From Thermoplasmata archaeon (lineage in GTDB: Archaea > Thermoplasmatota > Thermoplasmata > RBG-16-68-12 > JAFNFQ01), in contig JBGPQV010000004.1 of assembly GCA_041489255.1 (NCBI GenBank), positions 64,001 to 128,000 on the forward strand: 64,000 nucleotides of DNA, written 5' to 3'. Position numbers and translations under genes: made by a program. Shown here one piece after another: positions 8,901 through 24,860 of the stretch (positions are counted from its first letter, which is position 1; the number at the start of each line of letters is the position of its first letter). Below the pieces are notes generated by a model, which was given only the letters and a program-made list of their open reading frames with translations, made no database searches and had not been told where the DNA came from.

Positions 8901-10370
8901 AGGAACTTCGTACACGCCAACTACACGTTCACAATCGACATGGAGTCGCCGCCTTTGGCCTTGGCGGGACTTCCGGTGGAGTACTTGCGTCAGAACACAG
9001 TGATGCTCCAAGGCAGCTCGGATCCCAATGCGTATGTCTTGATTGGCGGGACATGGCGTCAGCTCGACGCGACAGGCCAATTCTCCGTTCCTCTGACGCT
9101 TGAAGAGGGGAACAACGTCATCGACGTCACGGCGACACGCTGGTTCCAGGTGCAAAAGTCGGGCAGTATTCCCGCCAACACGGTCACTCTGCAGAAGAGG
9201 TACGTCTATGACATCACTCCACCGTCGATTCTTGGCGTGACCACCGATCCTTCTATTCTGCCGATAAACACGGAGACCTTGCGGCTATCCGGCCGATTGG
9301 CCGACAACATAGCACTAGACACTCCGCTGGCGAATTACTCAATGCTGAAGTTCACGATCAATGGCGCGCCGGTGAGCGTCTTCCCGGACGGCAGCTTCTC
9401 GGTGGTCGTTCCGACGTTGGAAGAACAGAACAGCTACGTGCTCTACGTGGAGGATCCAGCGGGCAACAATGTCACGAGCGCGCCCCTGATAATCACCAGA
9501 GACACCGTGGCGCCGGTCATAGAAGTCTCGGGGGTTCCTGAGCGCGTGGAGGCGGACAGGGTCACGGTGACCGTGACTTCCGAGTCAGGCTTGAGGGTAA
9601 CCGTGAATGGCTTCGACGCCCCGGAGGGTCCGACAGGCACTTACACCAAGTTGATTGGCCTGAGCGGAGGCTCGAACACGATAGTCATCACCGCGCAGGA
9701 CAGCGCGAAGAACACCGTCGAGCGCAGGGTCGCCGTGGAGTACGCCGCCCCTGCGGGCCTTGGGAGCCAGCTGTTCGGGCCGGCCGGAGGGGCCGGGTCG
9801 ATAGCATTCATCGCGATCCTGGTGATCATAGTCGTCATCATCGTCTTCCTGGTCATTCGCTGGATGCGCGGACGGGGCGGCGTGGAGGAAGAAGGTGAGG
9901 TCGGCGCGGTCGAAACGGAGGTTCCAGCCGAAGAACCGGTTGGAGCGCCCGAGGAGGAAGAGCTGGAGACCGAGGAGATCGCGAAGCCGTCGAAGCCTGC
10001 TGAGGGACCACCTGAAGAAGTAAAGGCTCCACCAGCCGCACCGCAGAAGCCATCGGAGGAAGCGACAAAGCCGGCTTCCACGCTCGTCGTGTTCCGCGTG
10101 ACGAGGGCGAAGCTTGCGCTCGATCAGGGCAAGATATCCCAGAAGGTGTACGAGCAGAACCTCGCCTCGATGGGCCTCACTGTCACGGATGCGGACAAGA
10201 CAATCAAGGAGGCTGAGAAAGCCGAACAGCTCCAGGCTAGAGCCTCGCCCGCCGAGAAGAAGGCTCCGACGAAGGAGGACAAGATCAAGGCGCTCCGCAA
10301 GGCTCTGGACGAAGGACGCATAACCCAGGAAGTGTACGAGGCGAACATCAAGAGAATCCAGCAGAGCTAG
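2952..10370 (+). CDS. Giant membrane-anchored S8-fold surface protein with WD40 insert, Ig-like repeats, TM helix and two SHOCT-like domains
   Basis: 2472-aa ORF: N-terminal hydrophobic segment, VLDYG, WD40 repeats (VSPDG..SDKHVKVW, AWSPDG..KDNSVRLW), THGTEIAS, SSRGP..KPD, QGAG, C-terminal TM helix, Pro/Glu-rich linker, LDQGKISQKVYE and LDEGRITQEVYE. Confidence 0.85.
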   Translation: MTGRRQSLCVLLLLVMLSSAMYVSTPGQKPNQPDQAGTAPALSSEGTGTNPEKQVDMGASVSSIPMATYPSSSVGWPTASSEPTPDVNSPTIFDYHHIAEAQALGTPAYTGSDVRVSVLDYGLDMGQPDLNGSQFVQPSGPYAGWPVAFDPMSMGKWLRDEKYEGTWYANTTREGQPPFEVTHYILVDGRRDFGDSELLKEDPLGTSTSSTDGPKMDYDLTQLYVTHDEKFWYFGWPVTQYLNTNLTYGLMIDVNNETGGTTSVPEGKLVSTNTTHSGSPPTDLAVNDVTVSPDGTLIATTSSDKHVKVWRLDGSRLYDFAPDPLNPSSHTSNPYSLAWSPDSRFLASRDKSKLIVWDVVSGRQAWWTTIKDSTMDITPPDDRFSSSIAFSPNGQWIAVGADSRVSVFNAATGRYVGNVSAATGGIIRSVAFNPTNPTPPQIAIGADIYGTSSNTVRIYSLDATNLQNVRNPPVAVATWNSTTAAPGAHTGQIFSVAWSPDGLRIASTAKDNSVRLWNPPSTSPLRYSTLHGNWVYDVAWERSAPYRFATVSRSPTLPKAPLRLWGYNGSSLGYFELNKSTYAVDWTNSGELVTASLDLSARITSTSGNLQRILVANKPDYAVMIDAGMNYSMKDLKWEKVVYNGTFYSWNDTTSSWSQGNEVTKPPINGTQAFFGVDELFVELGVPTALLGNPSGISVEMFSVARDKSHAQDSVPIDGTVFDVDGNGKSDGGTADPSRPAIDFTPVETPLSAFQYVPVTYYKVNTTEINSVSRDYHFGYHPSQKLAQLFGSLGLLVVDPDRNGTYERVYLDMDRNTCESNHEFDSRDVWVDKSHPVATCNKAGTVDSTPDISAGMIYFVSDGVNNIPYSERFRELNGITNLKKPGNGELVAFAGEFRMDPDTNYPLTHGTEIASIIASRGRIDSARMKGIAPGVKLIPIVNALDDIISSWYFAVEGYDKSPATGDEAQIVLNPFEYPRTKDDGYDVYSRTADYLSTSYAQGRTVFFGPAGEEGFGYGSVASPAASPGIITVGRTVDGSMTAFPNGVEGTSIHYNNIAFRSSRGPTVSGFPKPDFVAIGNTAYDEPIIFGSDGTEALTDRGNSGSEISAAVAAGVAALLMDAAERIGRNLTASDIRNYLMSGAENLGYDILLQGAGFLNASRSMQLLLGSKDKASVFVSPPSWVPGLYKSSKPDSFTKLLFPGDGDQTTFTVENRDTKIVSLSLSGEMLTKWDGYVFTNKTTLRNLNDIFLWVNRSGVFVEDLSTFPPGFTMIAPALPQQIWDDSENVQVTAYGPFNNLIVPSGVDGFTNLYCYDMTLMDWTMDPFGYGHPSLTWVNELNTIDMLDHTANVLEARVHRPGTELHDALVIQLKRHLENDACGRSNLEWTFNVDFFQRVPWSILSLDKTSISLNAGGSTTVTASIQTPADMAMGSYEGAVYVYDSTNKHEITIPILVNVGARTPNFKFGGNLPATGLNDVSRLYGGRDLTLLGSNVRYPYTGDWRYFYVWLPDDGINVAGASIKMVIQLNWTVKPSDIDMVALTPATAADVASQFASTRFGPKSVREVVSSEAESRPKFKTLSNSSQDYISFQLSGGLNVIALHQMILNGDKPYEIFSGSGMWWRVPREVRKATQSLSGFVGGNAMLSDTLFGGLRVDAVGPAIGSKNSSELIKQDWQEWMSSLPFGSALAKGSYTLCLLIESVIILDIKLTGLSDVEDLDMGLFKDPNADCKLEEANTNGQPCSGVNCVGGGPPWAISAGSTATEEIKWTSPDDGRYIIKILGYTVPGGAGHFDLEVQQTLATGSGYMIPEAPPPEQLLIGTKPVLPPFSIVSYSMTWDFSGSQKDGNYSGAVRFGTATAGGIVVVPAMIVLDRQAPAISSFVVKSQTLLVNTTDPTLTNDPRPTLVVSLADRQMGSLARDTFKMVLNDVDITALMSVSVTLETNPYVTPAGPYGRWRGDMKFSAINPLANGIHTLYVAAGDEARNFVHANYTFTIDMESPPLALAGLPVEYLRQNTVMLQGSSDPNAYVLIGGTWRQLDATGQFSVPLTLEEGNNVIDVTATRWFQVQKSGSIPANTVTLQKRYVYDITPPSILGVTTDPSILPINTETLRLSGRLADNIALDTPLANYSMLKFTINGAPVSVFPDGSFSVVVPTLEEQNSYVLYVEDPAGNNVTSAPLIITRDTVAPVIEVSGVPERVEADRVTVTVTSESGLRVTVNGFDAPEGPTGTYTKLIGLSGGSNTIVITAQDSAKNTVERRVAVEYAAPAGLGSQLFGPAGGAGSIAFIAILVIIVVIIVFLVIRWMRGRGGVEEEGEVGAVETEVPAEEPVGAPEEEELETEEIAKPSKPAEGPPEEVKAPPAAPQKPSEEATKPASTLVVFRVTRAKLALDQGKISQKVYEQNLASMGLTVTDADKTIKEAEKAEQLQARASPAEKKAPTKEDKIKALRKALDEGRITQEVYEANIKRIQQS

Positions 10371-10524
10371 TGGACACTGAAACGGCAAGAGCCGCTAAGT
10401 CCCCGATCGGCAAGGGTCGCGAAACCCGGGCTATTTCAGGTGCACCTTCCTCCCGGCTCTTTGCAGACTCTCGGCTCGGCGGTAGATATTTATGCCCGGA
10501 TATAATCTCGGCCTCAGTGAATCT

Positions 10525-11085
10525 ATGAGCACGCCTCCACAACAGCCTATGAAAGTATGCATGTCGTGTGGCCGTCAGATAGGGGCGACCTACAACGCCT
10601 GTCCCTACTGCGGTGCCCCACAACAGGCCGCGGCTCCGATGGGAGCGCCCATGGAGCAGTCGCGCGTGTGCATGGGATGCGGAAGAACGATAGCGACAAC
10701 GTATTTTGCTTGCCCCTACTGCGGGAGACCGGCGGGTGCGATGGGGGTGCAAATGGGCCACAAGGAGACCGCGTACCCGATCGTCGCGGGCATCTTCGAG
10801 ATACTCGCGGGGATAATCGGTCTGGGATTTGGCGGGTTGACCATAGTTGGGGCCGGGGCGGCATCCACTATCCCATACGTCGATGTTGCCGGGATCATTA
10901 TGGTCTGCGGCGCGATTTTGGTCGTGTTCGGACTGATTAGCCTGCTCGGCGGCATATTCGCCTTGCAGAGGAAAAACTACGGGATGGCCTTGGTCGGCGC
11001 CATCTTCGCCCTATTCTGCGGATTCCTCATATTCGGAATACTGGCGCTGATATTCGTCATACTCGCGAAGGACGAGTTCCACTAG
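10525..11085 (+). CDS. Double zinc-ribbon membrane protein
   Basis: Two CxxC-x10-CPYC repeats followed by 3 hydrophobic helices; TATA-like TATTTAT near 10487. Confidence 0.8.
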   Translation: MSTPPQQPMKVCMSCGRQIGATYNACPYCGAPQQAAAPMGAPMEQSRVCMGCGRTIATTYFACPYCGRPAGAMGVQMGHKETAYPIVAGIFEILAGIIGLGFGGLTIVGAGAASTIPYVDVAGIIMVCGAILVVFGLISLLGGIFALQRKNYGMALVGAIFALFCGFLIFGILALIFVILAKDEFH

Positions 11086-11118
11086 CCATCAATGAACCGA
11101 CTTGGGTCCCATGCAAGA

Positions 11119-11158
11119 GGTGCCCGTCTGAGGGCGGGCACCGTCAATCCTTTTCTTC
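11119..11158 (+). terminator. Putative terminator hairpin
   Basis: GGTGCCCG-N8-CGGGCACC followed by a pyrimidine run CCTTTTCTT. Confidence 0.4.
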
Positions 11159-11262
11159 ATACGGAAATTATCACTACGAATCCTCGCCTTGAAACCCGGA
11201 CCGCCTCCTGATATTGGCAAAGGGCTTTAGAGGGAATCGTGATACGTCGCCAGGTTGTCACG

Positions 11263-12531
11263 ATGAAGACATCGGAAATATCCGGCTTCTACAAGCTGAG
11301 CCCCGCGGAGCGCCTCGCACTCGTCAGGGAGTATGCCGCCTTGTCCGAAGATGAGGCCAAGGCCCTGTCTGCCGAGGGTTCTCTCAAGCTCGCCGACGCG
11401 AACAGGATGATCGAGAATGTTGTGGGGACGATGCCGGTGCCGCTGGGCATGGCGGTGAACTTCAAAGTAAACGACCGCGACTATCTAGTGCCTATGGCGC
11501 TCGAGGAGCCGAGCGTCGTCGCGGCGGCATCCAACGCCGCGAAGATGGCCAGGGCGAAGGGGGGTTTCACCGCGACGACAACAGGCCCGGTCATGATCGG
11601 GCAGATACAGGTCACTCACGTGCCGGACCCGGACGGAGCCGCTCAAACGATCATGCGGAACAAGGACAAGATACTCAAGATGTGCAACGCCAAGGATCCC
11701 GTGCTCGTCAAGTTCGGCGGGGGCGCGAAGGATGTGGAGTGCAGGATCGTCCAGAGCATGAGAGGACCGATGCTCATCGTGCACCTGCTCGTCGACTGCA
11801 GGGATGCGATGGGCGCGAACGCGGTCAATACGATGGCGGAAGCCGTGGCGCCATACCTGGAGGAGCTTAGCGGCGGGAGAGTCTTTCTCAGGATAATCTC
11901 GAATCTCGCAGTCAAGAGACTCGCCCGATCGACCGCAATCTTCGATAAGGAATCCATCGGCGGACCTGATGTGGTCGAGGGAATCCTGGAGGCATACGCA
12001 TTCGCGGAAGCTGACCCTTACAGATGCGCGACTCACAACAAGGGCGTGATGAACGGGATTGACGCGGTGGTGCTAGCCACGGGCAACGACTTCAGGGCGG
12101 TCGAGGCTGGCGCGCACGCATACGCGGCGATGGGCGGGAAATATCACTCGCTGACCACCTGGGAGAAGAATGCCGACGGCGACCTCGTCGGTTCAATCGA
12201 GCTTCCCTTGGCAGTTGGCCTCATCGGCGGAGCGACCGCGTCTCACCCCGTCGCGAAAGCAAATGTGCGGATCCTTGGCGTGAAGACTGCGCAGGAACTC
12301 GCGGAGGTCATGGCGTCTGTCGGTCTGGCGCAGAACTTCGCCGCACTCAGGGCGCTCACCACGGAAGGAATCCAGCGGGGACATATGTCACTCCACGCGA
12401 GGAACATCGCGATTGCGGCTGGCGCCATTGACGATGAAATCGACCGGGTCGCCGCGCTGATGGCCTCCGAGAAAAGGGTCCGGATGGACAGAGCGAAAGA
12501 GATTTTGGACCAAATGCGAAAGGGCAAGTGA
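11263..12531 (+). CDS. mvaA: Class II hydroxymethylglutaryl-CoA reductase
   Basis: SGFYKLS..ER, IENVVG, EEPSVVAA, DAMGANAVN, ATHNKG and EGIQRGHM motifs. Confidence 0.95.
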   Translation: MKTSEISGFYKLSPAERLALVREYAALSEDEAKALSAEGSLKLADANRMIENVVGTMPVPLGMAVNFKVNDRDYLVPMALEEPSVVAAASNAAKMARAKGGFTATTTGPVMIGQIQVTHVPDPDGAAQTIMRNKDKILKMCNAKDPVLVKFGGGAKDVECRIVQSMRGPMLIVHLLVDCRDAMGANAVNTMAEAVAPYLEELSGGRVFLRIISNLAVKRLARSTAIFDKESIGGPDVVEGILEAYAFAEADPYRCATHNKGVMNGIDAVVLATGNDFRAVEAGAHAYAAMGGKYHSLTTWEKNADGDLVGSIELPLAVGLIGGATASHPVAKANVRILGVKTAQELAEVMASVGLAQNFAALRALTTEGIQRGHMSLHARNIAIAAGAIDDEIDRVAALMASEKRVRMDRAKEILDQMRKGK

Positions 12532-12687
12532 AGCCCCGACATCGTTCTCCGGCGGGTCTATAATAGTTGATGTGATAACGAGATTATAGACATAAATTCG
12601 CCATAATGGTTGATATGGGGTCTGGGCCGCTCTCGTGGCGGGAATCTCCAAATCCTAGAATCTACATCCACATGCAGGAGCGCTGGA

Positions 12688-13227
12688 ATGCGTAGTCAGT
12701 ACGATGATGGGCAGCGATTCCAATACTCCATTCCTTCAGTGCAGACGCAGTACCAGACCGACTACACTCCGCCGATCTCCAGACCGACGGCAGGGTTGGT
12801 TCTCTCCGTCCTTGGCGGCGTCTTCGTTATCTTCGGAGGCTTGGCACTCCTTCTGGTTCAGGGCACATTCGGCTACTATCTATCCGGGATTGCCGCCGAG
12901 GCGATATGCGCCCCGATAGGAGTCATCATGATACTCGGAGCTATCGATGCATATTCACGTCCCCAGAGAAAGGTGGCCTGGGGCACGACGATAATCATCC
13001 TATCGCTCGTGAGCTGGGCATTCGCGCAGGGCGGCATGATATTCGGCTCCATACTCGGCTTGGCGGGAGGCATTCTCATCGTCGCGCATAAGACGTCGAT
13101 GCTTCCAGCACCGCCGCAAGTGATCATTCGCGAAAGGGATGTGGTCAAGATCGCGTGCCGCAACTGCGGTGCGATTGTGGACTTCGAGATGATGACTTGT
13201 CCGTATTGCGGGCGCTCACCAAGGTGA
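12688..13227 (+). CDS. Membrane protein with C-terminal zinc ribbon
   Basis: About 4 TM helices, then CRNC..CPYC; AGGAG upstream of ATG 12688. Confidence 0.75.
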   Translation: MRSQYDDGQRFQYSIPSVQTQYQTDYTPPISRPTAGLVLSVLGGVFVIFGGLALLLVQGTFGYYLSGIAAEAICAPIGVIMILGAIDAYSRPQRKVAWGTTIIILSLVSWAFAQGGMIFGSILGLAGGILIVAHKTSMLPAPPQVIIRERDVVKIACRNCGAIVDFEMMTCPYCGRSPR

Positions 13228-13477
13228 GAGACCGTCTCATTGGTCGATTATGCTGACCACTATAATAGAATCATAAGTTACGCAATCAGATATAAAATGA
13301 AACGTCATGCTTTTCTGCTGCATTTCTTGGCAAATTCGCCACGAAAGCTGAACGTAGCTCGCCCCACGCACGATGCCGTGAACTCGGCGTGATTGGCGGG
13401 ACCGAACATCGCGCAGTCGACGTTGCCGACAGTCTTTTGTAGTCCAAGCTAGATACGCGCTCGCGGGATGGGAACCG

Positions 13478-14344
13478 TTGACAGCGGTCGCGCTCTACAC
13501 CAGAGTTTCTACTGAGGATCAGGCCAAGGAGGGCTTCTCCCTCGATGCGCAGCAAGACAGGCTGCTGGCCTACTGCAAAGCCCGAGGCTGGGATGTTGCC
13601 GACAAGTACGTCGATGACGGCCATTCGGGCAGGAGCGTGAAGCGGCCGGCGTACCAGAGGATGATGGCGGAGAAGGACAGGTGGGACGCCCTCCTCGTGA
13701 TCAAGATGGACCGCATACACAGGAACGCGCGCAACTTCATGGAGATGATGGACAACCTCCAGAAGTGGGGCAAGGATTTCGTCTCTGCCACCGAGTCGCT
13801 CGACACCAGCACCGCAATGGGCCGGTTCGTGATGGACATCATCCAGAGGATCGCGCAGCTGGAGAGCGAACAGATTGGAGAGCGCGTCTACATGGGGATG
13901 AGCCAGAAAGCGAAGAAAGGAGAGGGGATACTCGGTTCACCGATCCCATACGGCTATCGTCTCGTCGATGGCAAGTTCTCTGTTGTCGAACCGGAGGCGG
14001 ACGTCGTACGCGAGATCTTCCGAAGGTACTGCGGCGGGGATTCCCTGGAGGACCTGCGGCGACACCTCAGGAGAAAAGGCATTCTCACTAGGATCGGGAA
14101 AGAATGGTCCAAGATGAGTCTGGCTCACATTCTGCATAATCCAATCTATGTCGGGAACCTTCGGTGGGACGGCATCATCAGGGAGGGCGATCACTCCGCC
14201 ATCGTAGACTCGGAGACATTCGACGAGGTTCAGAGAACCAGCTCGAGTAAACTGAGAAATCGTCCGCACGCGAGGGGACAAGGCGCGAACGGACTCGGTC
14301 ACGTAACGACAACCCGCCAAGCCGCGACACCACAGGAAGGATGA
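13478..14344 (+). CDS. Serine recombinase (resolvase catalytic domain plus recombinase domain, no zinc-ribbon tail)
   Basis: YTRVSTEDQ (catalytic Ser), DDGHSG, RPAYQRM, KMDRIHR, DTSTAMGR, PYGY, NPIYVG, HSAIV. Confidence 0.93.
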   Translation: MTAVALYTRVSTEDQAKEGFSLDAQQDRLLAYCKARGWDVADKYVDDGHSGRSVKRPAYQRMMAEKDRWDALLVIKMDRIHRNARNFMEMMDNLQKWGKDFVSATESLDTSTAMGRFVMDIIQRIAQLESEQIGERVYMGMSQKAKKGEGILGSPIPYGYRLVDGKFSVVEPEADVVREIFRRYCGGDSLEDLRRHLRRKGILTRIGKEWSKMSLAHILHNPIYVGNLRWDGIIREGDHSAIVDSETFDEVQRTSSSKLRNRPHARGQGANGLGHVTTTRQAATPQEG

Positions 14345-14348
14345 ACAC

Positions 14349-15131
14349 ATGGCTGACGCCGCACGCGAATCGGTGAGGAACTCGCTCCCGAGATGCGAAA
14401 GATGCTGGTCGACCGCCGATGTTCAGCTCTTCAGATTCATGGCGACCGGGGAGATGACCAGGAACGACGACGAAACCGGCATCCCCCTCTGCAATGAATG
14501 TAGAAAGAAGGCGCCTCGAGATCCATTGGTCTTCAAAGAGATATTCTTGCGTTTCGGCTCACCGAAAGAACTGCTGTCCGCGTACTCCGCGCATTCAGAG
14601 GAGGAAGCCATCGGGAAGCTCTGCGCCGAGAAGCGCTTGGACTATGCGAACATGATGGCGCGGTTGAGTGGCTCCGCCGCAGCTGCGCGGATCGGGGCCG
14701 AGCTTGCGGGGGAGAAGACCGGCGGCAAGATGGCCCACCTCATGGGGCCGTTCGGATACCACTACGACGATTCCGGCTTGGCGGTGAACGAGACGGAGGC
14801 GAAGGTCGTCCTCGAGATCTTCAACTTGTACATGAACGGGCTCGGCATCGCAAAGATCTGTCGAGAGCTGAACAGGCGGGGTCACCGGACGAGGACGGGG
14901 AAGGCGTGGGCGAGTCAGACGGTCGCGAACATTCTGAGCAACCCAATCTATTGCGGGTTCATGCGAGTCAACGGCGACCTCAAGGCCGGGAAGCATAGGC
15001 ACCTGGTCCAGGTCGGCGTCTTCAACCGAGTACAGGAGGAAATGCAGCGCCGCATAAGGCGGCCGGACCAAAAGAGCGATAACTGCCTGACTTTGCCGCA
15101 AAAAGAGGCGCAACTAGGGGAATCTCAGTAA
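14349..15131 (+). CDS. Non-catalytic recombinase-domain protein with N-terminal degenerate HNH-like Zn finger
   Basis: CERC..LCNEC at the N-terminus; PFGY..EAKVVLEIF..LNRRG..W..NILSNPIYCG..H..LV at the C-terminus; no YxRVS motif. Confidence 0.8.
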   Translation: MADAARESVRNSLPRCERCWSTADVQLFRFMATGEMTRNDDETGIPLCNECRKKAPRDPLVFKEIFLRFGSPKELLSAYSAHSEEEAIGKLCAEKRLDYANMMARLSGSAAAARIGAELAGEKTGGKMAHLMGPFGYHYDDSGLAVNETEAKVVLEIFNLYMNGLGIAKICRELNRRGHRTRTGKAWASQTVANILSNPIYCGFMRVNGDLKAGKHRHLVQVGVFNRVQEEMQRRIRRPDQKSDNCLTLPQKEAQLGESQ

Positions 15132-15153
15132 AACACGGTTCACCGTGTTTTAC
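15128..15153. repeat. Perfect 12-bp inverted repeat with 2-nt centre
   Basis: GTAAAACACGGT-TC-ACCGTGTTTTAC, overlapping the stop codon of the upstream gene. Confidence 0.9.
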
Positions 15154-15182
15154 GGACAAGGGGGAAAATGGGCTTGACAAAA

Positions 15183-15295
15183 CATAGTGACCATAGCACT
15201 ATGGAAGGCGATACGCCTATTGGTGCTATAGAAAGGTTTAATGCTAAGCATACTATATAGCACAATAGAATTATGGTAAAGCATAAAACTATGGG
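15183..15295 (+). promoter_or_regulatory. AT-rich promoter with repeated ATAGCAC operator-like motifs
   Basis: CATAGTG-N7-CACTATG; CTATTGGTGCTATA and TATAGCACAATAG flank AAAGGTTTAAT (BRE/TATA-like). Confidence 0.55.
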
Positions 15296-15304
15296 AGATG
15301 GACA

Positions 15305-15451
15305 ATGCCCGCTCGGAAAGTTTCGGTGACGACGATACAAGTATCCGCCGCGACGAGGGACCGACTGTACAAGCTCAAGTTCCGGAAGACCTATGATGAC
15401 TTCCTGCAGCAGTTGTGCGATCTCTACGAGCAAGCACAGGGCGAAAAGTGA
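15305..15451 (+). CDS. Small ribbon-helix-helix-like DNA-binding protein (48 aa)
   Basis: Manual translation MPARKVSVTTIQVSAATRDRLYKLKFRKTYDDFLQQLCDLYEQAQGEK; the TTIxVS..RL..LK..TYDD.L pattern is typical of archaeal RHH/antitoxin-like proteins; GGAGATGG upstream. Confidence 0.75.
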   Translation: MPARKVSVTTIQVSAATRDRLYKLKFRKTYDDFLQQLCDLYEQAQGEK

Positions 15452-15569
15452 GATTCGCGGTCTTTGATTATAATATTCCATCATTATAGCAACAAGCTAA
15501 ACTAATGGCGTATAAGCGTAAACAAGGCGTTTAGAACCCTTTTTGACCGCACATGCGTTGGTGGTTGCG

Positions 15570-16946
15570 ATGCAGAGTTGGGTTGAGAAGTATCGCCCGC
15601 AGACGCTCTCGGACGTGGCGGGGAATGCCGCCGCGCTGAGCGAGCTGAGGTTGTGGGCCGAGTCTTGGGACAAAGGCAAGCCTCAGAAGAACGCTGTGAT
15701 CCTGGCGGGCAAGGCGGGGACGGGCAAGACGAGCGCAGCCCTCGCATTGGCTCAGGATATGCACTGGCAGGTCATTGAGATGAACGCGTCTGATGCCAGG
15801 AACGCCGATGCGGTGCGCAGGATTGCCACACGCGGTGCGAGATTCGAGACGTTCCTCTCGGACGGCAGCTACGTCCGCGCGAGCGAGGGCGGGAGGAAGC
15901 TGATAGTCCTCGACGAGGCGGACAACCTCTTCGGCACCGAAGACAGGGGAGGGATAGGGGCAATCGTGGAGACAATAGAGAAGAGCGGTCATCCGATCGT
16001 GCTCATCGTCAACGACCTCTACGAGCTCACTCGGAGATCCTCGTCCCTGAAACGCCTTTGCAAGACCATCAAGTTCCAGCGCATCCACGCAGCGACCGTG
16101 AAATCGGTCCTGAAGAAGGTCTGCAAGGCCGAGGGAGTCACGGTGTCCGAGGACATGCTGGAACATATGGCGACAAAATCGCAGGGAGATCTGAGGTCAG
16201 CGGTCAACGACCTGCAACTGGTCAGCGCAGGCAAGACCGATGTGGGGATCGAAGATGCCTCGGCGATAGGGTCGAGGGACACCGAAGGCAACGTCTATGA
16301 TGCGCTCCTCGAGATCTTCAGGTCGGGCAGTGTGGAGAAGGCGAGGAAGAGCACGACGAATCTCGATGAGTCGCCGGAAACCTTGATCCTTTGGATAGAC
16401 GAGAACATGCCGGTCGAATACAGGAGGCCAGACGACCTCTCGCGGGGCTACTCGGCTCTCTCGAAATCCGATGTGTACTTGGGGCGAGTGAGGCGCCGTC
16501 AGAACTACGGCCTCTGGTCATACGCCAAAGACATGATGACCGGTGGTGTGGCTGCCGCGCGGCAGGGCTCCTATGCCGGAGGTGTGTACAGATTCCCTAC
16601 GTGGCTCATGAAGATGTCTCGTTCGAGCAGCTTGCGGAAGACGATCGACTCTCTGGCGGGGAAGCTCGGATCCTGCATGCACACTTCAAAGAGAGTGATA
16701 GTCAACGATGTCATCGGGCCGTTCCGCCAACTGTTCCGCAATGATAGCGAGCTGAGGTTGAACGCAGCCATCGAACTGAACCTCGATGCGAAGGAGATTG
16801 CGTTCTTGCTTGGAGAAGAAGAAGACTCACACCCGGTGAAGCATCTCATGGAGGCGGTTGGCAAGCTCAAGAGCGCAGAATCGGAGGGTTCGACGGGGTT
16901 CGAGAGGTTCGCAGGGAGCGAGAACCAAAGCGAGCGCGACGAGTGA
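15570..16946 (+). CDS. rfcL: Replication factor C large subunit
   Basis: WVEKYRP, GKAGTGKT, EMNASD, DEAD, GDLRSAVNDLQ, WIDEN. Confidence 0.95.
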   Translation: MQSWVEKYRPQTLSDVAGNAAALSELRLWAESWDKGKPQKNAVILAGKAGTGKTSAALALAQDMHWQVIEMNASDARNADAVRRIATRGARFETFLSDGSYVRASEGGRKLIVLDEADNLFGTEDRGGIGAIVETIEKSGHPIVLIVNDLYELTRRSSSLKRLCKTIKFQRIHAATVKSVLKKVCKAEGVTVSEDMLEHMATKSQGDLRSAVNDLQLVSAGKTDVGIEDASAIGSRDTEGNVYDALLEIFRSGSVEKARKSTTNLDESPETLILWIDENMPVEYRRPDDLSRGYSALSKSDVYLGRVRRRQNYGLWSYAKDMMTGGVAAARQGSYAGGVYRFPTWLMKMSRSSSLRKTIDSLAGKLGSCMHTSKRVIVNDVIGPFRQLFRNDSELRLNAAIELNLDAKEIAFLLGEEEDSHPVKHLMEAVGKLKSAESEGSTGFERFAGSENQSERDE

Positions 16947-17051
16947 AGGAGTGAATCCGCCTATTGCGATGGCGTCCTGAAATGGCCATGGACACACGAC
17001 ATGGGCTCGCAAGGTGGGCAGATTGTCCGATTCACCAAACCGCTATAACCC

Positions 17052-17999
17052 ATGGCGGTATTCGTCGGTCCCGACATGGAAAAGGACAAGCGCGAATTGC
17101 TCGAGAGACAAGGATACAGAATCGTGGGCGAGCATAGCGCGGTCAAGCTGTGCCATTGGCTCAAGAGCGAGATTGCCGGTGGCCCGGGCTGCTACAAGGA
17201 GACATTCTACGGGATACGCAGCCATCGTTGCCTGCAGATGACCCCCACGGCGGATGCATGCAACCTGAATTGCCTCTTCTGTTGGAGGGCGCAGGATTGG
17301 GGCACTGACAGCCTCATCCACGCCGATGATCCCGGACGGATAATCGAAGACTCGATCAAGGCCCAAAGGGTCCTGATCTCGGGGTTCAAAGGCAATCCGC
17401 GCGTCTCGAAAGATATGTTCGCCGAGAGCAGCAATCCGAATCAGGTGGCGATTTCGCTGACGGGTGAGCCAACTTTGTATAGGCGCTTGGGGGAGCTCAT
17501 CGAGGATTTCCATGAGCGCGGAATGACAACCTTCCTGGTCACGAACGGCACGAATCCGAAAACACTTGAGAAGCTCGACCCGTTGCCGAGACAACTCTAT
17601 GTGTCAATCGTCGCGCCGACAGAGGAGATCTACCGGAAGCTGGCGTTCCCGAAGAGCGGCAACGAATGGCGCCATCTCAGGGAGACCCTCGAGCTCCTTC
17701 CCAGTCTGGACACCAGACGGGTCATCCGCCATACGCTTGTGGACAAGTGGAATCTGGGTTTCGCCGAAGACTACGCGAAATTGGACGCGGCTGCCGATCC
17801 GGATTTCATCGAGTGCAAGGCGTACATGTTCGTCGGGCGCTCCCGCGAAAGGCTGCTCATGGAGAACATGCCCTCCCATGCGGCCATCAGGGAATTCTCG
17901 GCGCAGCTCGCAGACGCCACAGGCTATGGTGTGGCCGGTGAGAGGGAGGACAGCAGGGTGGCGCTTCTGACGCGCGACGGCGCCCTGCACCCCCTCTAA
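17052..17999 (+). CDS. taw1: 4-demethylwyosine synthase TYW1 (radical SAM)
   Basis: HSAVKLCHW, CYKETFYGI.SHRCLQMTP, CNLNCLFCWR, ISLTGEPTLY. Confidence 0.95.
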   Translation: MAVFVGPDMEKDKRELLERQGYRIVGEHSAVKLCHWLKSEIAGGPGCYKETFYGIRSHRCLQMTPTADACNLNCLFCWRAQDWGTDSLIHADDPGRIIEDSIKAQRVLISGFKGNPRVSKDMFAESSNPNQVAISLTGEPTLYRRLGELIEDFHERGMTTFLVTNGTNPKTLEKLDPLPRQLYVSIVAPTEEIYRKLAFPKSGNEWRHLRETLELLPSLDTRRVIRHTLVDKWNLGFAEDYAKLDAAADPDFIECKAYMFVGRSRERLLMENMPSHAAIREFSAQLADATGYGVAGEREDSRVALLTRDGALHPL

Positions 18000-18012
18000 G
18001 CTGCATCCCGTC

Positions 18013-18582
18013 ATGCGAGGCAACTCTTTTAGTCCCGCCAAGCTTGTGGGGTTGACAGGTACAGCCTTGCCTGATCTAGTAGGCATGTTGGAAAGCTTCC
18101 TCGGAGATCCAGCCGTCTACCTGTTCCTCGTCTTCGGATACTCGATTCTTGTCGCGGTAATCCTCCCAATCCCCATAGAGGTCGCTCTCATTTGGCCGCT
18201 CTTGAAAGGCGAACTTCCGTACTTCGCGGCCGTGGTACTGGTCATGGCAATCGGCAAAACCCTGGGAGCGCTCTTCGTGCTCTTCCTGGGCATCAAGGTC
18301 GAGAAGACGGTCTACTATTGGAGCCGCAAGTCTGAATGGTTCGGCAAGCTGGTACATTACCTCGGTCTATTTGTGAAGAAGACCGGCTACATTGGGCTCT
18401 ACATTATCCTGAGCATCCCCTTGATGACGGACACGTTCCCAATCTACATATACTCCATTTTCCACGAGGAGGGTAAGAAGCCAAGCAGGTTCAAGTTCAG
18501 CATGAGCAACTTCTTCGCCGCGATTACCAGAGCGATCATCATCGCTGTCATCGTCACGCTGTTCGGCGTGCAACTCATCTAG
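18013..18582 (+). CDS. Membrane protein, DedA/VTT(YqaA)-like; start uncertain (ATG 18085 possible)
   Basis: LPIPIE motif, GKTLGA, LSIPLM.D, several TM helices. Confidence 0.65.
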   Translation: MRGNSFSPAKLVGLTGTALPDLVGMLESFLGDPAVYLFLVFGYSILVAVILPIPIEVALIWPLLKGELPYFAAVVLVMAIGKTLGALFVLFLGIKVEKTVYYWSRKSEWFGKLVHYLGLFVKKTGYIGLYIILSIPLMTDTFPIYIYSIFHEEGKKPSRFKFSMSNFFAAITRAIIIAVIVTLFGVQLI

Positions 18583-18590
18583 GAGGAGAA

Positions 18591-19607
18591 ATGCCCGCTC
18601 CCGAGGTAGACTGGATTCGGTGGGACGACCTGCCGCCGATACTCAACTCCGCGGCGATCTTGGACAAGGCTTTCAAAAGGGCTGCAAAAGCGCACGGCCG
18701 CGGAAGAACGAGAGCGGAGAGAGCCAAGTCAGGGAGCGTGGCGAGAGTGCATTCGTTGGGTGACACGATCTCCTCGACACTCGAGAGGTATGTCAAGGCG
18801 TTTCCAAGCATCGGGAGGCTGCCCCCGTTCTATCGAGACCTCATGCACATACTCGTGAACGTCGAGACGGTCAGGCACGATCTGGGGACCGTCGACTGGT
18901 GCAGGAAGAAGGTGCTGGCGTTCTCCAAGGCGTACTCGCGCGAGATAGGCCGTTCCAGCGATGCCGGGCTGGTCGAGGTAAGGAGGAAGGAGGCGTATGG
19001 CCGGATAAGCTCTCTCGTCCATCAGGTGGCGGAGAGCTTGGAGCGCCTTGAGGCTGCGAGGAAGAGGCTGTCCAGCGTCCCGTTGATCGACCTCGAGGCA
19101 CCGACGGTCGTCGTCGCCGGGATGGCCAATGTCGGCAAGAGCCAGTTCGTAGCCGCCGTGTCCACGGCCAAACCCAAAGTGGCCCAGTACCCATTCACGA
19201 CCAAGGAGATCAGTTTGGGCCACACGGAGAGGGGCCATCTGCGGATTCAGGTGATAGACACCCCGGGCCTGCTGGACCGCCCAGCCGAGAGAAGGAACCC
19301 CATAGAGCAGCAGGCCGCCAGCGCGCTGAAAAACCTGGCGAAGCTGGTCGTATTCCTGTACGACCCGACAGAGACATGCGGCTTCACCATGCCAGAACAG
19401 ATTCACTTGTTCGAAAGGCTCAGAGAGGAATTCCCCGACGTGCGTTTCGTCGAAGTGGAGAACAAGGTCGACCTGAAGAATTCCGGTTCCGGCAGGATGA
19501 AAGTCTCGGCCCTTACAGGGAAAGGAGTGGACAAGGTTCTGGATCATATGGCGGCTCTACTCACCAACCGCGCTCCTGGAGCCTCTCCTCCTCAGAGAGC
19601 TGACTGA
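18591..19607 (+). CDS. NOG1-family GTP-binding protein
   Basis: [42 protein letters not shown]. Confidence 0.92.
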
Positions 19608-20580
19608 TGTCCATGCCCTTCATAGGCGCACCTATGCCTTTCGACACCTCGACGACCACCTGAGGGTCATCATAGTGGAGGACCGCCTCGACTATCGCTT
19701 TCGCGCGGATCTCGGGGTTGTCGGACTTGAATATCCCTGAACCGACGAAGATGCCGTCGCAGCCGTGCATCATCATCATTGCCGCGTCCGCAGGAGTCGC
19801 AATCCCACCCGCCGCGAAGTTGACGACCGACAACCTTTTCAGCTTCTTCACATCGAGCAGCACATGATAGAGCGCCTCGACGACTTCATCTAGCGTCTCA
19901 TCGGCGAAGACGACATCGAGCTCGTTGACCTTCGTCGACTCGCCGTTTTCCTCCCTGACGCTCTTGAGCAGGACCGTGTAGCTCTCAGCGTACTTCTTCG
20001 CGATCGGGAGCATCTCATCATTATCCTTCTTCTCGATCTCGATAATCGCCTGATTTATGAGGCGGGCGTGTCTCACCGCCTCGACGACATTCCCTGTGCC
20101 GGCCTCGCCCTTCGTCCTCATCATCGCTGCGCCCTCATGGATCCTCCGGACGGCTTCTCCGAGGTTCCTCGCGCCGCAAACGAAAGGCACGCTGAACATC
20201 CTCTTCGGTATATGGAAGAAAGGATCGGCTGGAGTGAGCACCTCGGACTCGTCGATCATGTCCACGCCCATCGACTCCAGTGCCCTGGCCTCGGCGATGT
20301 GACCTATGCGGACCTTCGCCATCACGGGAATCGTGACCGCATTCATTATCTCTTGAATCCTCTGCGGGTCGGCCATCCTCGCTACGCCTCCCGCCGCCCG
20401 GATGTCCGCGGGCACCCTCTCCAAGGCCATGACGGCGACAGCTCCTGCCTCCTCCGCGATGGCGGCTTGGTCCGCCGTCGTGACGTCCATTATGACTCCG
20501 CCCTTCTGCATCTTGGCGAAGCCACGCTTGAGCAGCTCTGTCCCGTATTTCAGCTTCTTCAGGTCGAGTTCCAAGGGCAT
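19561..20580 (-). CDS. pdxS: Pyridoxal 5'-phosphate synthase lyase subunit
   Basis: [48 protein letters not shown], ends LQERGW. Confidence 0.97.
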
Positions 20581-20724
20581 TACCGGCGCCCCCGTGGATT
20601 GCTAGTTGAGGTTTCTATATCTATGTTTCGGTAACCTTTGCGCTTTCCTGACAGTGCGCAAGGGGATTGGCGCCCCATAGCCGCTCCTCCCTTCCTATTG
20701 CACAAATCTAAACCGCACCTCTGC

Positions 20725-20943
20725 ATGTTTCCGGACGTGGACAATGCGCCTAGATCGGCATTCATACCCAACAGAGTCGTTGTCTTCCGCCCGCCGGGAG
20801 AAAAGCAGGAAATAGCGGAGATGGTCGATTTCGTCAAGGAAATGGATAGCATTGATGGCAAGGCGACTGCATACGTCTGCACCCGCCGAACCTGCAAGCT
20901 TCCGACAACAGACCCTGTCGAAATGATGAAGCTGCTGGGTTAG
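20725..20943 (+). pseudogene. C-terminal fragment of a YyaL/SPATA20-like thioredoxin-domain protein
   Basis: FIPNRVVV..DGKATAYVC...TCKLPTTDP..M.KLL matches the extreme C-terminus of that family; the rest of the gene is absent. Confidence 0.7.
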
Positions 20944-21059
20944 GTCCGCCAGTTTGACCCCGAATCATGGAATCCGAGAGGTCGTCCCCAATGCTGGCCG
21001 CTCGGTTGGAGCGAGAATGCTTATATACACGTCCGAAATCGCACGCAGGTTGATTTTTT

Positions 21060-21773
21060 ATGCAGGGCGAGACAAGTGAAACAACAACCAAAGTGAAAGA
21101 CACGACGGCCAATCCAGCACCGCTCGGTCTCCTGGGTTTCGGCATGACGACCGTTCTGCTGAACATACACAACGCGGGTTACTACGGGATCGGCTCCATG
21201 ATACTCGCGATGGGCATATTCTATGGAGGAATGGCCCAGATATTCGCGGGCATAATGGAGTGGAAGAAAGGCAATACCTTTGGCACCGTCGCCTTTACGA
21301 GCTACGGCCTATTCTGGCTGACGCTCGTCGGGCTGCTGACGATACCATACATATTCCCAGGACCGACGGGACCGGCCTCATCCGCATTCGCGACGGATAA
21401 TACTGCCTTCGGCTGGTACCTGGTGATGTGGGGCGTGTTCACGTTCGTAATGTTCCTGGGCACCCTGAAGCTAAACAGGGCCCTGCAGTTCGTGTTCATT
21501 ACCCTCGCGATACTCTTCTGGCTGCTCGCGGCCGGCAAATTTACCGGCAACGCGGACATCACTAAGGTCGCTGGTTTCGAGGGAATCGTCTGCGGTTTCT
21601 CCGCGATCTACACTGGCCTCGCGCAAGTGCTGAATGACGTATACGGCAGGACGGTGGCTCCCATCTTCCCCATGAAGCCGAAGCAGGCTCCGCAGCCTGT
21701 AGCGACCCCGCCGTCCTATACGCCACCGCAGCAGCAGTACCCACCGCCCCCTGGCATGCCGCCGCGCAGCTAG
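21060..21773 (+). CDS. satP: Acetate uptake transporter (GPR1/FUN34/SatP family)
   Basis: [33 protein letters not shown]; TATA-like TTATATA at 21021. Confidence 0.93.
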
Positions 21774-21891
21774 GTCATCGCCCAAAGTAGGCTGGTAGAC
21801 GGGGCGCGTCTCTAACACGACCCCGTCCTTCCAGCCTCCAGTCTGGGAGTAAGTCCTTAATAGCGAGGGCCTTTGCTGATGCGGGATACCA

Positions 21892-22437
21892 TTGAAGGTC
21901 GTCTGCGTAACAGGCATGCCCGCCTGCGGCAAAGAGGAATTCCTGAAGATAGCACGGTCGAAGGGCTTCGCAGTCGTCCGGATGGGCGATGTCGTCCGAG
22001 AGGAGGCAGCCAAGGCAGGGATACCTGCCAAGGATCCTGATGTGGGCAACTTCGCCAATGAAGAGAGGAAGAAGCACGGGTTCGATATCTGGGCGAAGCG
22101 GACGTTGCCCAGGATATCAAGCGGACTAAGTCTGGTGGACGGTGTGAGAGGGCCCACGGAGTTAGATGTCTATCGTGCGGCGTTCCCGAACGGATTATGC
22201 GTCGTCGCGGTGCACTCGTCATCTGGGACTAGAATGCGCCGGATGATGAAGAGGAAGAGGAAAGACGACCCCGCTAACGAGAAGGAGTTCCGAGCGAGGG
22301 ACGCGAGGGAGCTAAGCTGGGGCCTGGGCGATGTCATTGCCCTCGCTGACCATGTGATAGTGAATGAGGGGGACCTGACGGCCTACATGACCCAGGCCAC
22401 CGCCACCATCGAGAAGATACTCTCCGAAGGGAAATGA
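21892..22437 (+). CDS. UPF0200 P-loop nucleotide kinase (dephospho-CoA-kinase-like)
   Basis: TGMPACGK, MGDVVREE, DGVR, RDARELSWG, AD.VIVNEG. Confidence 0.85.
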   Translation: MKVVCVTGMPACGKEEFLKIARSKGFAVVRMGDVVREEAAKAGIPAKDPDVGNFANEERKKHGFDIWAKRTLPRISSGLSLVDGVRGPTELDVYRAAFPNGLCVVAVHSSSGTRMRRMMKRKRKDDPANEKEFRARDARELSWGLGDVIALADHVIVNEGDLTAYMTQATATIEKILSEGK

Positions 22438-22438
22438 G

Positions 22439-24853: not shown

Positions 24854-24860
24854 TGCGATG

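Follow-up and report, generated by a model that had tools for sequence, protein, structure and literature searches.

A vertically inherited serine recombinase module with its own candidate crossover site, proposed to act in place of XerA/dif in Thermoplasmata

Introduction

To our knowledge, every system for the resolution of chromosome dimers that has been described to date depends on tyrosine recombinases (XerCD, XerS, XerH, and XerA), and we know of no FtsK in archaea. Serine recombinases such as Tn3/γδ resolvase acting at res, Sin, β recombinase, and ParA of RK2 resolve dimers or cointegrates of replicons. Small resolvases and invertases consist of a catalytic domain and a short C-terminal helix-turn-helix, approximately 180–200 aa in total, and in large serine integrases site architecture and directionality come from the zinc-ribbon and coiled-coil domains. 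Several serine recombinases have also been recruited by their hosts, as exemplified by SpoIVCA and by XisF, the latter of which needs two small accessory proteins, XisH and XisI. Among archaea, the Methanomassiliicoccales include methanogens of the human gut and rumen, with cultured members. The section of PMC8371274 that deals with archaeal serine recombinases describes them as seen only in transposons and never studied. In the passages of Cortez et al. (2010, PMC2958812) on archaea that lack xerA, these organisms are expected to have recruited "another tyrosine recombinase", and the same source notes that the XerS gene adjoins its own site at the terminus. Our literature searches found no publication that combines Methanomassiliicoccales, a recombinase, and Xer, nor one describing the serine system reported here.

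We analyzed a 64,000-nt stretch of DNA (hereafter, the window) from a Thermoplasmata archaeon (GCA_041489255.1, contig JBGPQV010000004.1, positions 64,001–128,000, forward strand), which carries two adjacent genes of the serine recombinase family, A and B, a palindromic site, X, and a small DUF7557 gene. Sequence comparison makes it rather probable, in our judgment, that A, B, the DUF7557 protein, and X constitute a site-specific recombination system that resolves chromosome dimers instead of XerA/dif.

Organization of the Locus

The features of the locus are as follows (window coordinates).

13430–13472, + strand: conserved region 5′ of A, with a T-rich TATA-like box, CAGTCTTTTGTAG, at 13430–13442 and the motif GGGATGGG at 13465–13472
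13478–14344, + strand: gene A, catalytic serine recombinase, 288 aa, TTG start (ORF list, Pfam)
14349–15131, + strand: gene B, non-catalytic paralogue, 260 aa, ATG start (ORF list, Pfam)
15130–15151: site X, candidate crossover site, AAAACACGGT-TC-ACCGTGTTTT, centre at 15140–15141
15174–15294: Y region, candidate accessory sites or operator; TTGACAA at 15174–15180, then palindromes of the CATAG-NN-CTATG type
15191–15204: Y palindrome CCATAGCACTATGG, CATAG-NN-CTATG type
15217–15231 and 15253–15268: Y inverted pair, CATAG-NN-CTATG type
15282–15294: Y palindrome CATAAAACTATGG, CATAG-NN-CTATG type
15305–15451, + strand: small DUF7557 gene, 48 aa (Pfam, orthologues)
15543–16946: rfcL, the gene for the RFC large subunit (RFC-L; ORF list)

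HMG-CoA reductase lies upstream of A, and TYW1 follows rfcL, so that the module sits among housekeeping genes, as a preliminary description of this DNA had stated. The start codon of B lies 4 nt past the stop of A, and GGGATGGG ends 5 nt ahead of the start codon of A. A CTTTTTTAC-like box, followed after approximately 25–30 nt by GGGATGGG, was found 5′ of A in nearly all of about 50 unique loci, among them loci of other orders, namely of family f9 and, in a variant form, of f26.

Gene A comprises a resolvase catalytic domain (PF00239 at 4–149, E 8.5e-39), an αE helix, a recombinase domain (PF07508 at 173–255, E 4.4e-19), and a variable C-terminal tail. The zinc-ribbon domain PF13408 (Zn_ribbon_recom) was not matched by Pfam at E ≤ 0.1 and no coiled-coil domain was found; the Pfam results thus agree with the preliminary account of an enzyme with intact catalytic and recombinase domains and neither of these two additions. 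An alignment of 16 orthologues showed no variation in the nucleophile-bearing motif YxRVSTEDQ (S11) or in the MDRIHRN block (R79, R82), and R9 is nearly invariant; with its catalytic domain, serine, and arginines, A belongs to the serine recombinase superfamily. Approximately 80 columns, including the whole αE helix, are invariant among 16 sequences from three orders, a pattern indicating at the sequence level that A is under strong constraint. A was ruled out as a large serine integrase, having 288 aa as opposed to about 450 or more and neither zinc-ribbon nor coiled coil, and also as a small resolvase or invertase, its C-terminal part being the PF07508 recombinase domain of approximately 85–100 residues.

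In gene B, Pfam matched the Recombinase domain alone (148–235, E 5.6e-21), and the catalytic domain PF00239 was not matched. B consists of a degenerate HNH/Cys4 finger (approximately 11–57), a helical region (59–94), a long αE-like helix (99–119), and a recombinase domain (126–236). Residues 73–239 align with A 99–263 at 32% identity, and the alignment begins at residue 99 of A. The AF2 model of B (mean pLDDT 80.4) matched SprA (9dxd_A; VIA-align Z 15.0, model 72–240 against chain 100–304) and the complex of the A118 integrase recombinase domain with DNA (4kis; VIA-align Z 14.0, rmsd 1.9 over 104 residues; Foldseek E 2e-6). A fold search with the N-terminal domain alone returned nothing at E ≤ 0.001, and its weak matches were mostly HNH nucleases (best 4h9d, E 1.1). 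Cysteines C16, C19, C48, and C51 are invariant in 15/15 orthologues. The finger of the window's B has four Cys and no His, as proposed earlier for an HNH-like finger without His residues, with a predicted ββα pattern (E26–28, E45–47, H49–54); it had no Pfam HNH match. Two orthologues, from genome G002 and from one f26 genome, pass Pfam HNH PF01844 with 33.9 and 26.2 bits (cut-off 21.4). Since two orthologues pass this profile and the window's B lacks the His residues, HNH ancestry of the finger is supported, and activity is not.

B is single-copy in the window's genome and monophyletic (SH-aLRT 99), nested among A-like sequences on a long branch, with only two thirds of B aligned; given this branch and alignment, B may derive from either the first or the second gene of a recombinase tandem. 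An ESM Atlas search with B returned only the cluster of B itself and clusters of stand-alone recombinase domains from DPANN archaea and Bacillota (score 0.89), which are no more than leads. B is a separate paralogue in which the catalytic core (A residues 1–98) has been swapped for an HNH domain; its ancestry is an HNH endonuclease fused to an αE helix and a recombinase domain. The possibility that a large serine integrase had been split in two, as the preliminary description suggested, was rejected: B does not continue the domain order of A, and the second gene of sister orders is fully catalytic. We infer that B is an accessory subunit of the module. Seven genomes lack B and keep A and the small gene, and family f14 has A alone, so B is not essential everywhere.

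The window's small ORF scored 22.2 bits against DUF7557, under the 25-bit cut-off, and 14/14 of its orthologues matched this family at E ≤ 0.1 (best E 2.6e-7). Against PDB profiles, the best match of the small protein was the antitoxin MazE7 (E 0.13). Its strand-helix-helix pattern suggests a ribbon-helix-helix fold, and it is probably a ribbon-helix-helix DNA-binding protein and part of the module. Of 301 genomes of the class, 45 have strong orthologues (E ≤ 1e-20), which in 43 cases are accompanied by the recombinase module.

Conservation and Inheritance of the Module

The order A-B-RFC-L-TYW1-membrane gene was found in all 16 fetched loci, which represent five families of the window's order, and 12 of the 16 also have the DUF7557 gene. 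A full-length B lies behind an A gene in 47/61 genomes of the order, a number that rises to 56/61 if any match is counted. When 15 loci of the order were compared with the window, identity averaged 62.7% for A, 61.5% for TYW1, and 54.1% for RFC-L; the identity of A tracks that of TYW1 (Spearman 0.65) and of B (0.78), and the A and B subtrees show the same family groupings. Sister orders have a complete catalytic recombinase as their second gene, and Methanomassiliicoccales have two catalytic paralogues in tandem (A+A′) in place of A-B. In at least three orders, the module is found at the same conserved position, with one copy per genome. These data indicate that the A-B module is host-owned, vertically inherited, and not mobile. 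The survey of A+B co-occurrence and rfcL synteny thus gave the outcome expected from the idea of a domesticated recombinase put forward in the preliminary description, and this idea is borne out by the vertical inheritance, the order-wide co-occurrence, and the synteny.

A mobile element, whether IS607-like, a transposon, a provirus, or integrative, was ruled out: the location is fixed across orders, X has no second copy, and no tRNA was found in a search of positions 5000–25000. PADLOC gave no match. It is very improbable that the module is a relic of a minimal mobile element or that it represents integrase remnants in an integration hot spot bounded by HMG-CoA reductase and rfcL. Such an origin would fit the mobile-looking relatives in the window's genome (two serine recombinase trios, on contigs C25 and C28, plus a lone copy on C18 that is 73% identical to A), the best PHROG match of A (a family of phage integrases), and the use of the slot by two different recombinase types, as described below. 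It is countered by the single conserved position across orders with conservation at a housekeeping level, the invariant catalytic residues, the single copy per genome, and the failure to find flanking repeats, cargo, or a tRNA at the module.

The module could instead be a domesticated recombinase with another housekeeping task at this locus, such as control of the expression of the small gene or rfcL, processing of intermediates of replication termination, or decatenation-like unlinking, in which case XerA-less organisms would resolve dimers by some other route. RFC-L lies downstream in 62/69 loci, the remaining seven being four loci cut off by contig ends and three from other orders, and this tight linkage favors such a task, as do the overlap of X and Y with the small-gene promoter, the dispensability of B in seven genomes, and family f7, in which rfcL alone is inverted relative to the module. 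The linkage is lost in f9 and f26, however, yet A, B, and the small gene remain together there, the small gene adjoining B although rfcL is not adjacent; moreover, the lack of a second X copy leaves no partner site for inversion or excision. Together with the XerA data considered below, these observations make another task unlikely in our view, although it is the strongest competitor of dimer resolution.

Candidate Crossover Site and Accessory Region

X has the anatomy, to judge from its sequence, of a serine-recombinase crossover site: two perfectly inverted arms of 10 nt each flank an asymmetric 2-nt centre (10-2-10). The palindrome reported earlier as perfect is therefore so in its arms over 10 nt and not, strictly, at its centre. 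In the window's genome (assembly 96.5% complete, 41 contigs), X occurs once when up to 3 mismatches are allowed, and X alone among 69 CGGTNNACCG cores has 8/8 complementary flanks; one site per chromosome is what dimer resolution systems have. The core CGGT-NN-ACCG, with up to 1 mismatch, was present in 46/55 unique intergenic sequences downstream of B, and it also occurs in other orders (f9, f14, and f33, with one X-like site in f33). In five f12 loci, the sequence that follows the second gene contained no convincing candidate, either for an X-like site or for a conserved palindrome.

The centre of X was CT in 15 sequences, AG in 13, AA in 8, TT in 5, GA in 2, and TC, CA, and TG in 1 each. 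A palindromic centre was found in 0/46, for which the chance probability is approximately 0.04 with eight distinct states. In three strains at least 98% identical, the centre reads TC (window), AG (G001), and CT (contigs of runs X6 and X7), and thus both centre bases vary among strains this close. This flipping between paired states (CT/AG, AA/TT, GA/TC, and CA/TG) can also come from recombinase-free template switching at palindromes. No deletion or inversion joints at X were seen in the contigs compared, and such contigs cannot show rare events.

The Y region overlaps the promoter of the small DUF7557 gene, and its consensus is TTGACAAyMCATAGnnCTATnTGnnCACATAGnnCTATGG. In 28 loci, the first Y palindrome lies 48–50 bp from the start of the X core, mostly with a second one 18 bp further; the spacing in the window is 56 bp.

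X and Y could be nothing more than transcriptional elements, X being a terminator-like hairpin of A-B and Y the operator of a DUF7557 repressor, with the true site of A elsewhere or gone. In line with such roles, X begins within the stop codon of B in the window, overlapping it by 2 nt, and the Y palindromes occupy the expected position of a small-gene promoter or operator. Ribbon-helix-helix proteins typically bind repeats of this kind, and loop-flipping at hairpins occurs without recombinases. In family f4, however, X lies 60–900 nt from the stop of B and yet always 48–50 bp from Y, so that X is tied to Y and not to the end of B. Furthermore, the primary sequence of the X core is invariant across orders beyond mere complementarity, a 2-nt loop cannot close a hairpin unless the inner pair opens, no Rfam family was matched, and X vanishes along with the recombinase genes. 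Purely transcriptional roles for both elements accordingly seem improbable to us.

Relation to XerA and Chromosomal Position

The complementarity of the module and XerA, which agrees with the reading preferred in the preliminary description, was evident across the class. Module-type matches were found in 100/301 genomes and XerA, taken as NF040815 at E ≤ 1e-40, in 208/301; cross-tabulated by hand, 26 genomes had both, 74 the module only, 182 XerA only, and 19 neither (odds ratio 0.037), a table that overstates the support, since related genomes are not independent. By family, XerA was found in 0/17 genomes of f4, 0/3 of f6, 0/7 of f7, and 3/35 of f12, and in 31/39 of f10, 36/37 of f17, 40/41 of f21, and 33/33 of f24. 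Most XerA matches in the 26 genomes with both are weak or located elsewhere, and XerA exceeds the curated cut-off in only 6 module-bearing genomes, a coexistence that speaks for another housekeeping task of the module. The window's genome encodes four tyrosine recombinases, the best of which scored 108.9 bits for XerA (cut-off 220).

In all five module-less genomes of the order that were examined (four of one genus and one of another family), a XerA-like gene lies between HMG-CoA reductase and RFC-L, the place held elsewhere in the order by A, B, and the small gene. It encodes 185 aa comprising the catalytic domain only, and its best NCBIfam match is XerA (169.5 bits). Genome G009, of the same genus as the four, has A+B and no XerA-like gene in the slot. 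The layout of a T-rich box and GGGATG recurs 5′ of the XerA-like gene; X and the small gene are not present at these loci. A dif-like 11-6-11 palindrome beside the XerA-like gene was not found in three f3 loci, and the module-less genome of the other family had one 9/11 candidate, which is not conserved. In five genomes checked from other families, XerA lies 23–181 kb from RFC-L (three closed genomes) or on a different contig (two). Another housekeeping task would leave unexplained both the class-wide complementarity and the presence of a XerA-like gene in exactly this slot.

Among closed Methanomassiliicoccales genomes, 11 have the homologous pair at a distance of 0.30–0.50 of the chromosome (mean 0.43) from their best orc1/cdc6 gene. 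For G027, a closed genome from the window's order and one of the seven that lack B, the distance to both full-length orc1/cdc6 copies is 0.42–0.50. The second orc1/cdc6 copy, however, is only 0.02–0.16 of the chromosome away from the pair in 10 of these 11 Methanomassiliicoccales genomes; should it mark an active origin, the argument for a terminus position would fail. Two large f9 genomes have the module at distances of 0.10 and 0.14 from the best orc1/cdc6 copy. GC skew and gene orientation along the window's contig revealed no polarity switch or terminus.

Proposed Mechanism and Significance

Vertical inheritance, a palindromic site of its own, and a slot held by a XerA-type enzyme in relatives together suggest that the module probably separates joined sister chromosomes. 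Of the three functions named in the preliminary description, chromosome resolution is favored by the complementarity to XerA and the shared slot, and inversion and a minimal-element relic are disfavored by a single-copy X at which the compared contigs show no joints. Dimers of catalytic A would bind both arms of X on each sister copy and synapse into a tetramer, in which S11 would cut both strands at the asymmetric central dinucleotide (15140–15141) and subunit rotation would exchange the strands. B, which retains the αE-like helix and a recombinase domain of the DNA-binding kind, may, with or without the DUF7557 protein, bind the Y palindromes approximately 50 bp away, the outer arms of X, or both, building a res-like accessory complex that would limit the reaction to deletion between direct repeats on one molecule. 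Autoregulation would follow, because these sites and the small-gene promoter overlap. We infer every binding and catalytic step of this scheme, and the biological role of the module, from sequence.

A broader proposal, which we regard as about evenly balanced between right and wrong, is that a serine dimer-resolution system has displaced XerA/dif in Methanomassiliicoccales and in a related uncultured order of soil and sediment, and that the version in the window's order is heteromeric, with an inert-HNH B and the DUF7557 protein supplying site architecture and directionality in trans.

If dimer resolution is indeed the role of the module, the serine family would gain its first cellular system for chromosome resolution. 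Dimer resolution could then be achieved by concerted double-strand cleavage and a topological filter instead of FtsK-type control, which bears on how FtsK-less archaea bias Xer-type reactions towards resolution, and the missing XerA of Methanomassiliicoccales would be accounted for. The module would also provide a compact recombinase of 288 aa whose site is short and defined, and a natural pairing of a catalytic subunit with a pseudo-enzyme subunit in site-specific recombination.

Comparison with Known Recombination Systems

Like XerA/dif of archaea and the bacterial XerS/difSL and XerH/difH, which use a single recombinase, the module is chromosomal and vertically inherited, with one site per chromosome; its distribution is complementary to that of XerA, with which it shares the slot within the order. 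Xer enzymes belong to the tyrosine recombinases and exchange strands sequentially at 11-6-11 sites, whereas the module has a serine recombinase, a 2-bp centre, and two extra proteins.

The module resembles res systems in that the site lies beside the recombinase gene and the candidate crossover site is accompanied by further palindromes at fixed spacing, overlapping a promoter; a resolution-only outcome would likewise be expected. It differs from these systems, which belong to plasmids and transposons and use recombinases of approximately 185–200 aa with a simple helix-turn-helix, in that A has the recombinase domain of large serine integrases. The accessory sites of res are filled by the same protein or by a host bending protein, and the candidate for this part in the module is a dedicated non-catalytic paralogue, B. 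The recombinase domain of A and B is shared with the A118 and Bxb1 integrases and with SprA/SprB of SPβ, as is the proposed modulation by a second protein. Unlike large serine recombinases, however, A and B have no zinc-ribbon or coiled coil, and there is a single site instead of attP and attB; and unlike known directionality factors, B is homologous to the recombinase itself.

CcrA/CcrB of SCCmec likewise comprise two adjacent paralogous serine recombinase genes, whose products are thought to act together. The best NCBIfam matches were CcrB for A (171 bits) and CcrA for B (49.9 bits), both far under the cut-offs, and the A+A′ tandem of Methanomassiliicoccales has a CcrA/CcrB-like layout. The Ccr proteins are full-length, both catalytic, and part of a mobile cassette, whereas B is non-catalytic and the module is not mobile. 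Finally, the module is, like SpoIVCA and XisF with XisH/XisI, a serine recombinase recruited by its host; those enzymes excise an element between two sites in terminally differentiating cells, whereas the module has one site and no element.

Locus organization

The preliminary description had proposed a catalytic serine recombinase gene (A) next to a shorter, second recombinase-type gene (B), and these open reading frames and their domains were borne out by ORF calling and a domain search. Together with a small DUF7557 gene, A and B form what is called here the module; X denotes a candidate crossover site 3' of B, and Y denotes the further palindromes between X and the small gene.

Features of the locus (window coordinates)
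13478-14344: A, 288 aa, resolvase catalytic domain and recombinase domain, zinc-ribbon domain absent
14349-15131: B, 260 aa, starting 4 nt past the A stop, recombinase domain only
15130-15151: X, 22-bp palindrome with 10-nt arms and centre TC (15140-15141), sharing bases with the B stop codon
15305-15451: small DUF7557 gene, 48 aa
15543-16946: RFC large subunit gene (RFC-L, rfcL)

An AT-rich stretch bearing more palindromes comes after X, and the locus is flanked by the genes for HMG-CoA reductase upstream and TYW1 downstream. Rfam and defence-system searches at the locus returned no matches, and no tRNA was found near the module. The interval between HMG-CoA reductase and A holds the ORF of a DUF6114 membrane protein whose C-terminus is a zinc ribbon (12610-13227), a region that carries an internal deletion of approximately 440 nt in the sister genome G001; a relative of this gene is located on the opposite side of HMG-CoA reductase (10492-11085). 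The motif GGGATGGG at 13465-13472 has an equivalent place in approximately 50 loci, 5-10 nt upstream of the A start. Its conservation spans orders; the ATG within it is not in frame with A, and the motif is similar to ATGGG, the outer right-hand arm that X has in family f4.

The module as a host gene set

We conclude that the module belongs to the host's own genes and is not a mobile element. B is present in one copy in the window's genome and was matched in 56 of the 61 genomes of the order, with full-length B in 47 and recombinase-domain matches alone in 9 (hand count of the match table); the five genomes without a match were G003, G005, G024, G031 and G044, the last of which is 62% complete. 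A adjoined B, often with a 4-nt overlap, in each of 16 loci retrieved across five families, and all 16 carried RFC-L, TYW1 and then a membrane protein gene 3' of A-B. The small gene was visible in 12 of these loci, and HMG-CoA reductase was immediately upstream of the module in 6. When named records of uncultured Thermoplasmata from soil, sediment and groundwater were added, RFC-L was downstream of B in 62 of 69 loci; of the seven exceptions, four are contig ends and three belong to other orders. Measured against the window, mean identity was 62.7% for A, 61.5% for TYW1, 54.1% for RFC-L and 39.6% for B. The conservation of A thus matches that of TYW1, and its divergence follows the divergence of both TYW1 and B; the catalytic motif and the entire alpha-E helix of A are invariant. 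A and the small gene occur without B in seven genomes (L126, L142-L147), which belong to families f2 and f3; X is kept in two of them (G014 and G019) as CGGACTACCG and is degenerate or interrupted in five. As a separate observation, family f7 (L030, L031, L032, L034, L040, L041, L042) has a fixed inversion in which only rfcL is flipped with respect to A-B-small gene and TYW1.

Profile searching with B retrieved full-length B only from the window's order and families f9 and f26. Two adjacent complete A-like genes, each with the YxRVST motif, were found in f12 (35/35 genomes), f29, f31 and f33, families of the Methanomassiliicoccales that include the cultured Methanomassiliicoccus luminyensis; Methanomethylophilus alvi likewise has the tandem (A+A'). 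In f33 and f29 this tandem is accompanied by a DUF7557 gene, RFC-L and TYW1. Family f14 has one A-like gene adjoining RFC-L and TYW1. Phylogenetically, the B sequences make up one clade nested among A-like sequences, and the window's A clusters with the second tandem gene.

The window's genome also contains mobile-looking relatives, namely two trios and one solo copy. The trios (contig C25, 26733-29815; contig C28, 14907-17953; loci L003-L008) consist of genes of 290-411 aa. Every one has Resolvase and Recombinase domains, and one additionally carries a TFIIS-type zinc ribbon; two tandem genes of each cluster share a strand and the third is divergent. Identity to A is 46-54% for the short member, and the clusters look like the recombinase trios of integrated elements. 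The solo paralogue (L002; contig C18, 33011-33865) is 73% identical to A and is its sister in the tree (SH-aLRT 94). A DNA methyltransferase-like ORF lies close to it, its contig also bears two tyrosine recombinases, and no X-like site was found near it.

Protein B and site X

The alignment of B to A begins only at A residue 99; identity is 32% across the recombinase domain and the alpha-E helix region before it. An AF2 model of B (pLDDT 80.4) matched SprA with Z 15.0 (model residues 72-240 versus chain 100-304) and the DNA-bound recombinase domain of A118 integrase with Z 14.0 (rmsd 1.9, 104 residues). Residues 1-57 hold four invariant cysteines within a predicted beta-beta-alpha unit, which in two orthologues (G002 and one f26 genome) is a bona fide HNH motif over the Pfam threshold; the histidines of this unit have been lost in the other orthologues. 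Because of this alignment, these fold matches and a cysteine unit devoid of histidines, B is considered a non-catalytic protein in which an inert nuclease finger precedes an alpha-E-like helix and a domain for DNA binding, that is, a recombinase paralogue whose catalytic core has been swapped out. B may plausibly serve as an accessory subunit, architectural or for directionality. All 117 relatives retrieved from a large protein collection came from Thermoplasmata metagenomes and bore generic names only.

The core of X, CGGT-NN-ACCG, was detected with at most one mismatch 3' of B in 46 of 55 unique intergenic sequences, and most of the remaining nine contained near variants. This core sits within an imperfect palindrome of 30-38 bp, is found also in f9, f14 and f33, and X is unique in the window's genome. 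The outer arms of X in family f4 read CCCATT...AATGGG. In 28 loci, a first CATAG-NN-CTATG palindrome, preceded by TTGACAA, occurs 48-50 bp from the start of the X core, and in most of these a second lies 18 bp further on and ends just short of the small gene. The central dinucleotide of X was seen in eight states (CT 15, AG 13, AA 8, TT 5, GA 2, TC 1, CA 1, TG 1), none of them palindromic. Among three strains at least 98% identical, the centre differs at both bases: TC is read in the window and in contigs of sequencing runs X2 and X3, CT in those of runs X6 and X7, and AG in G001. An invariant core together with a free, always asymmetric 2-bp centre and neighbouring sites at fixed spacing gives X and Y the anatomy of a putative serine-recombinase crossover site in a res-like region. 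This reading carries two caveats: the paired states show that the X centre flips, and palindromes can flip without an enzyme; and the Y sites may be no more than an operator of the small gene.

Relation to XerA

XerA is an archaeal tyrosine recombinase; the window's genome encodes four enzymes of the tyrosine type, and none approaches the cut-off for XerA. Among 301 genomes of the class, which are related so that the figures are not independent, 100 had a module-type match and 208 a XerA-model match at E <= 1e-40; cross-tabulation by hand gave both in 26, module only in 74, XerA only in 182 and neither in 19. XerA was mostly absent from module families (f4 0/17, f6 0/3, f7 0/7, f12 3/35), and the reverse was seen in f10, f17, f21 and f24, XerA families mostly without the module. 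In many Thermoplasmata (e.g., f21), the XerA-model match spans only model positions ~89-263, in open frames of ~185-220 aa, which may mean that these genomes have a split XerA or a short one with the catalytic domain only.

The decisive observation is a local swap in the slot. A 185-aa tyrosine recombinase whose best family match is XerA (169.5 bits, catalytic domain only) occupies the space from HMG-CoA reductase to RFC-L in five genomes: G003, G024, G031 and G028, which share a genus, and G005, which belongs to another family. None of A, B, the small gene or X is present in this slot. G009, of the same genus as the first four, has A and B and lacks the 185-aa gene. The layout of a T-rich box and GGGATG 5' of A is also kept 5' of the XerA-like gene, where GGGATGGG recurs as GGGATG. 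In other families (five genomes checked), XerA was 23-181 kb from RFC-L in three closed genomes and on a separate contig in two. Two unrelated recombinases thus alternate in one slot behind one putative promoter layout, and this alternation has the look of non-orthologous displacement of one function.

Chromosomal position

Across 11 closed Methanomassiliicoccales genomes, the distance from the tandem to the best-scoring orc1/cdc6 gene was 0.30-0.50 of the chromosome (mean 0.43), and in the closed genome G027 of the window's order, with A and the small gene without B, the locus was 0.42 and 0.50 from two full-length copies. However, a second orc1/cdc6 copy was just 0.02-0.16 from the tandem in 10 of the 11, and in two large f9 genomes the module was 0.10-0.14 from the best copy. 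Because of these opposing distances, the position of the module is compatible with a terminus without establishing one.

Comparison with known systems

We consider the finding to be real. No account of a serine-recombinase chromosome dimer resolution system was found in the literature searched, and the module is best read, with somewhat better than even confidence, as such a system, in which the serine recombinase would have displaced XerA.
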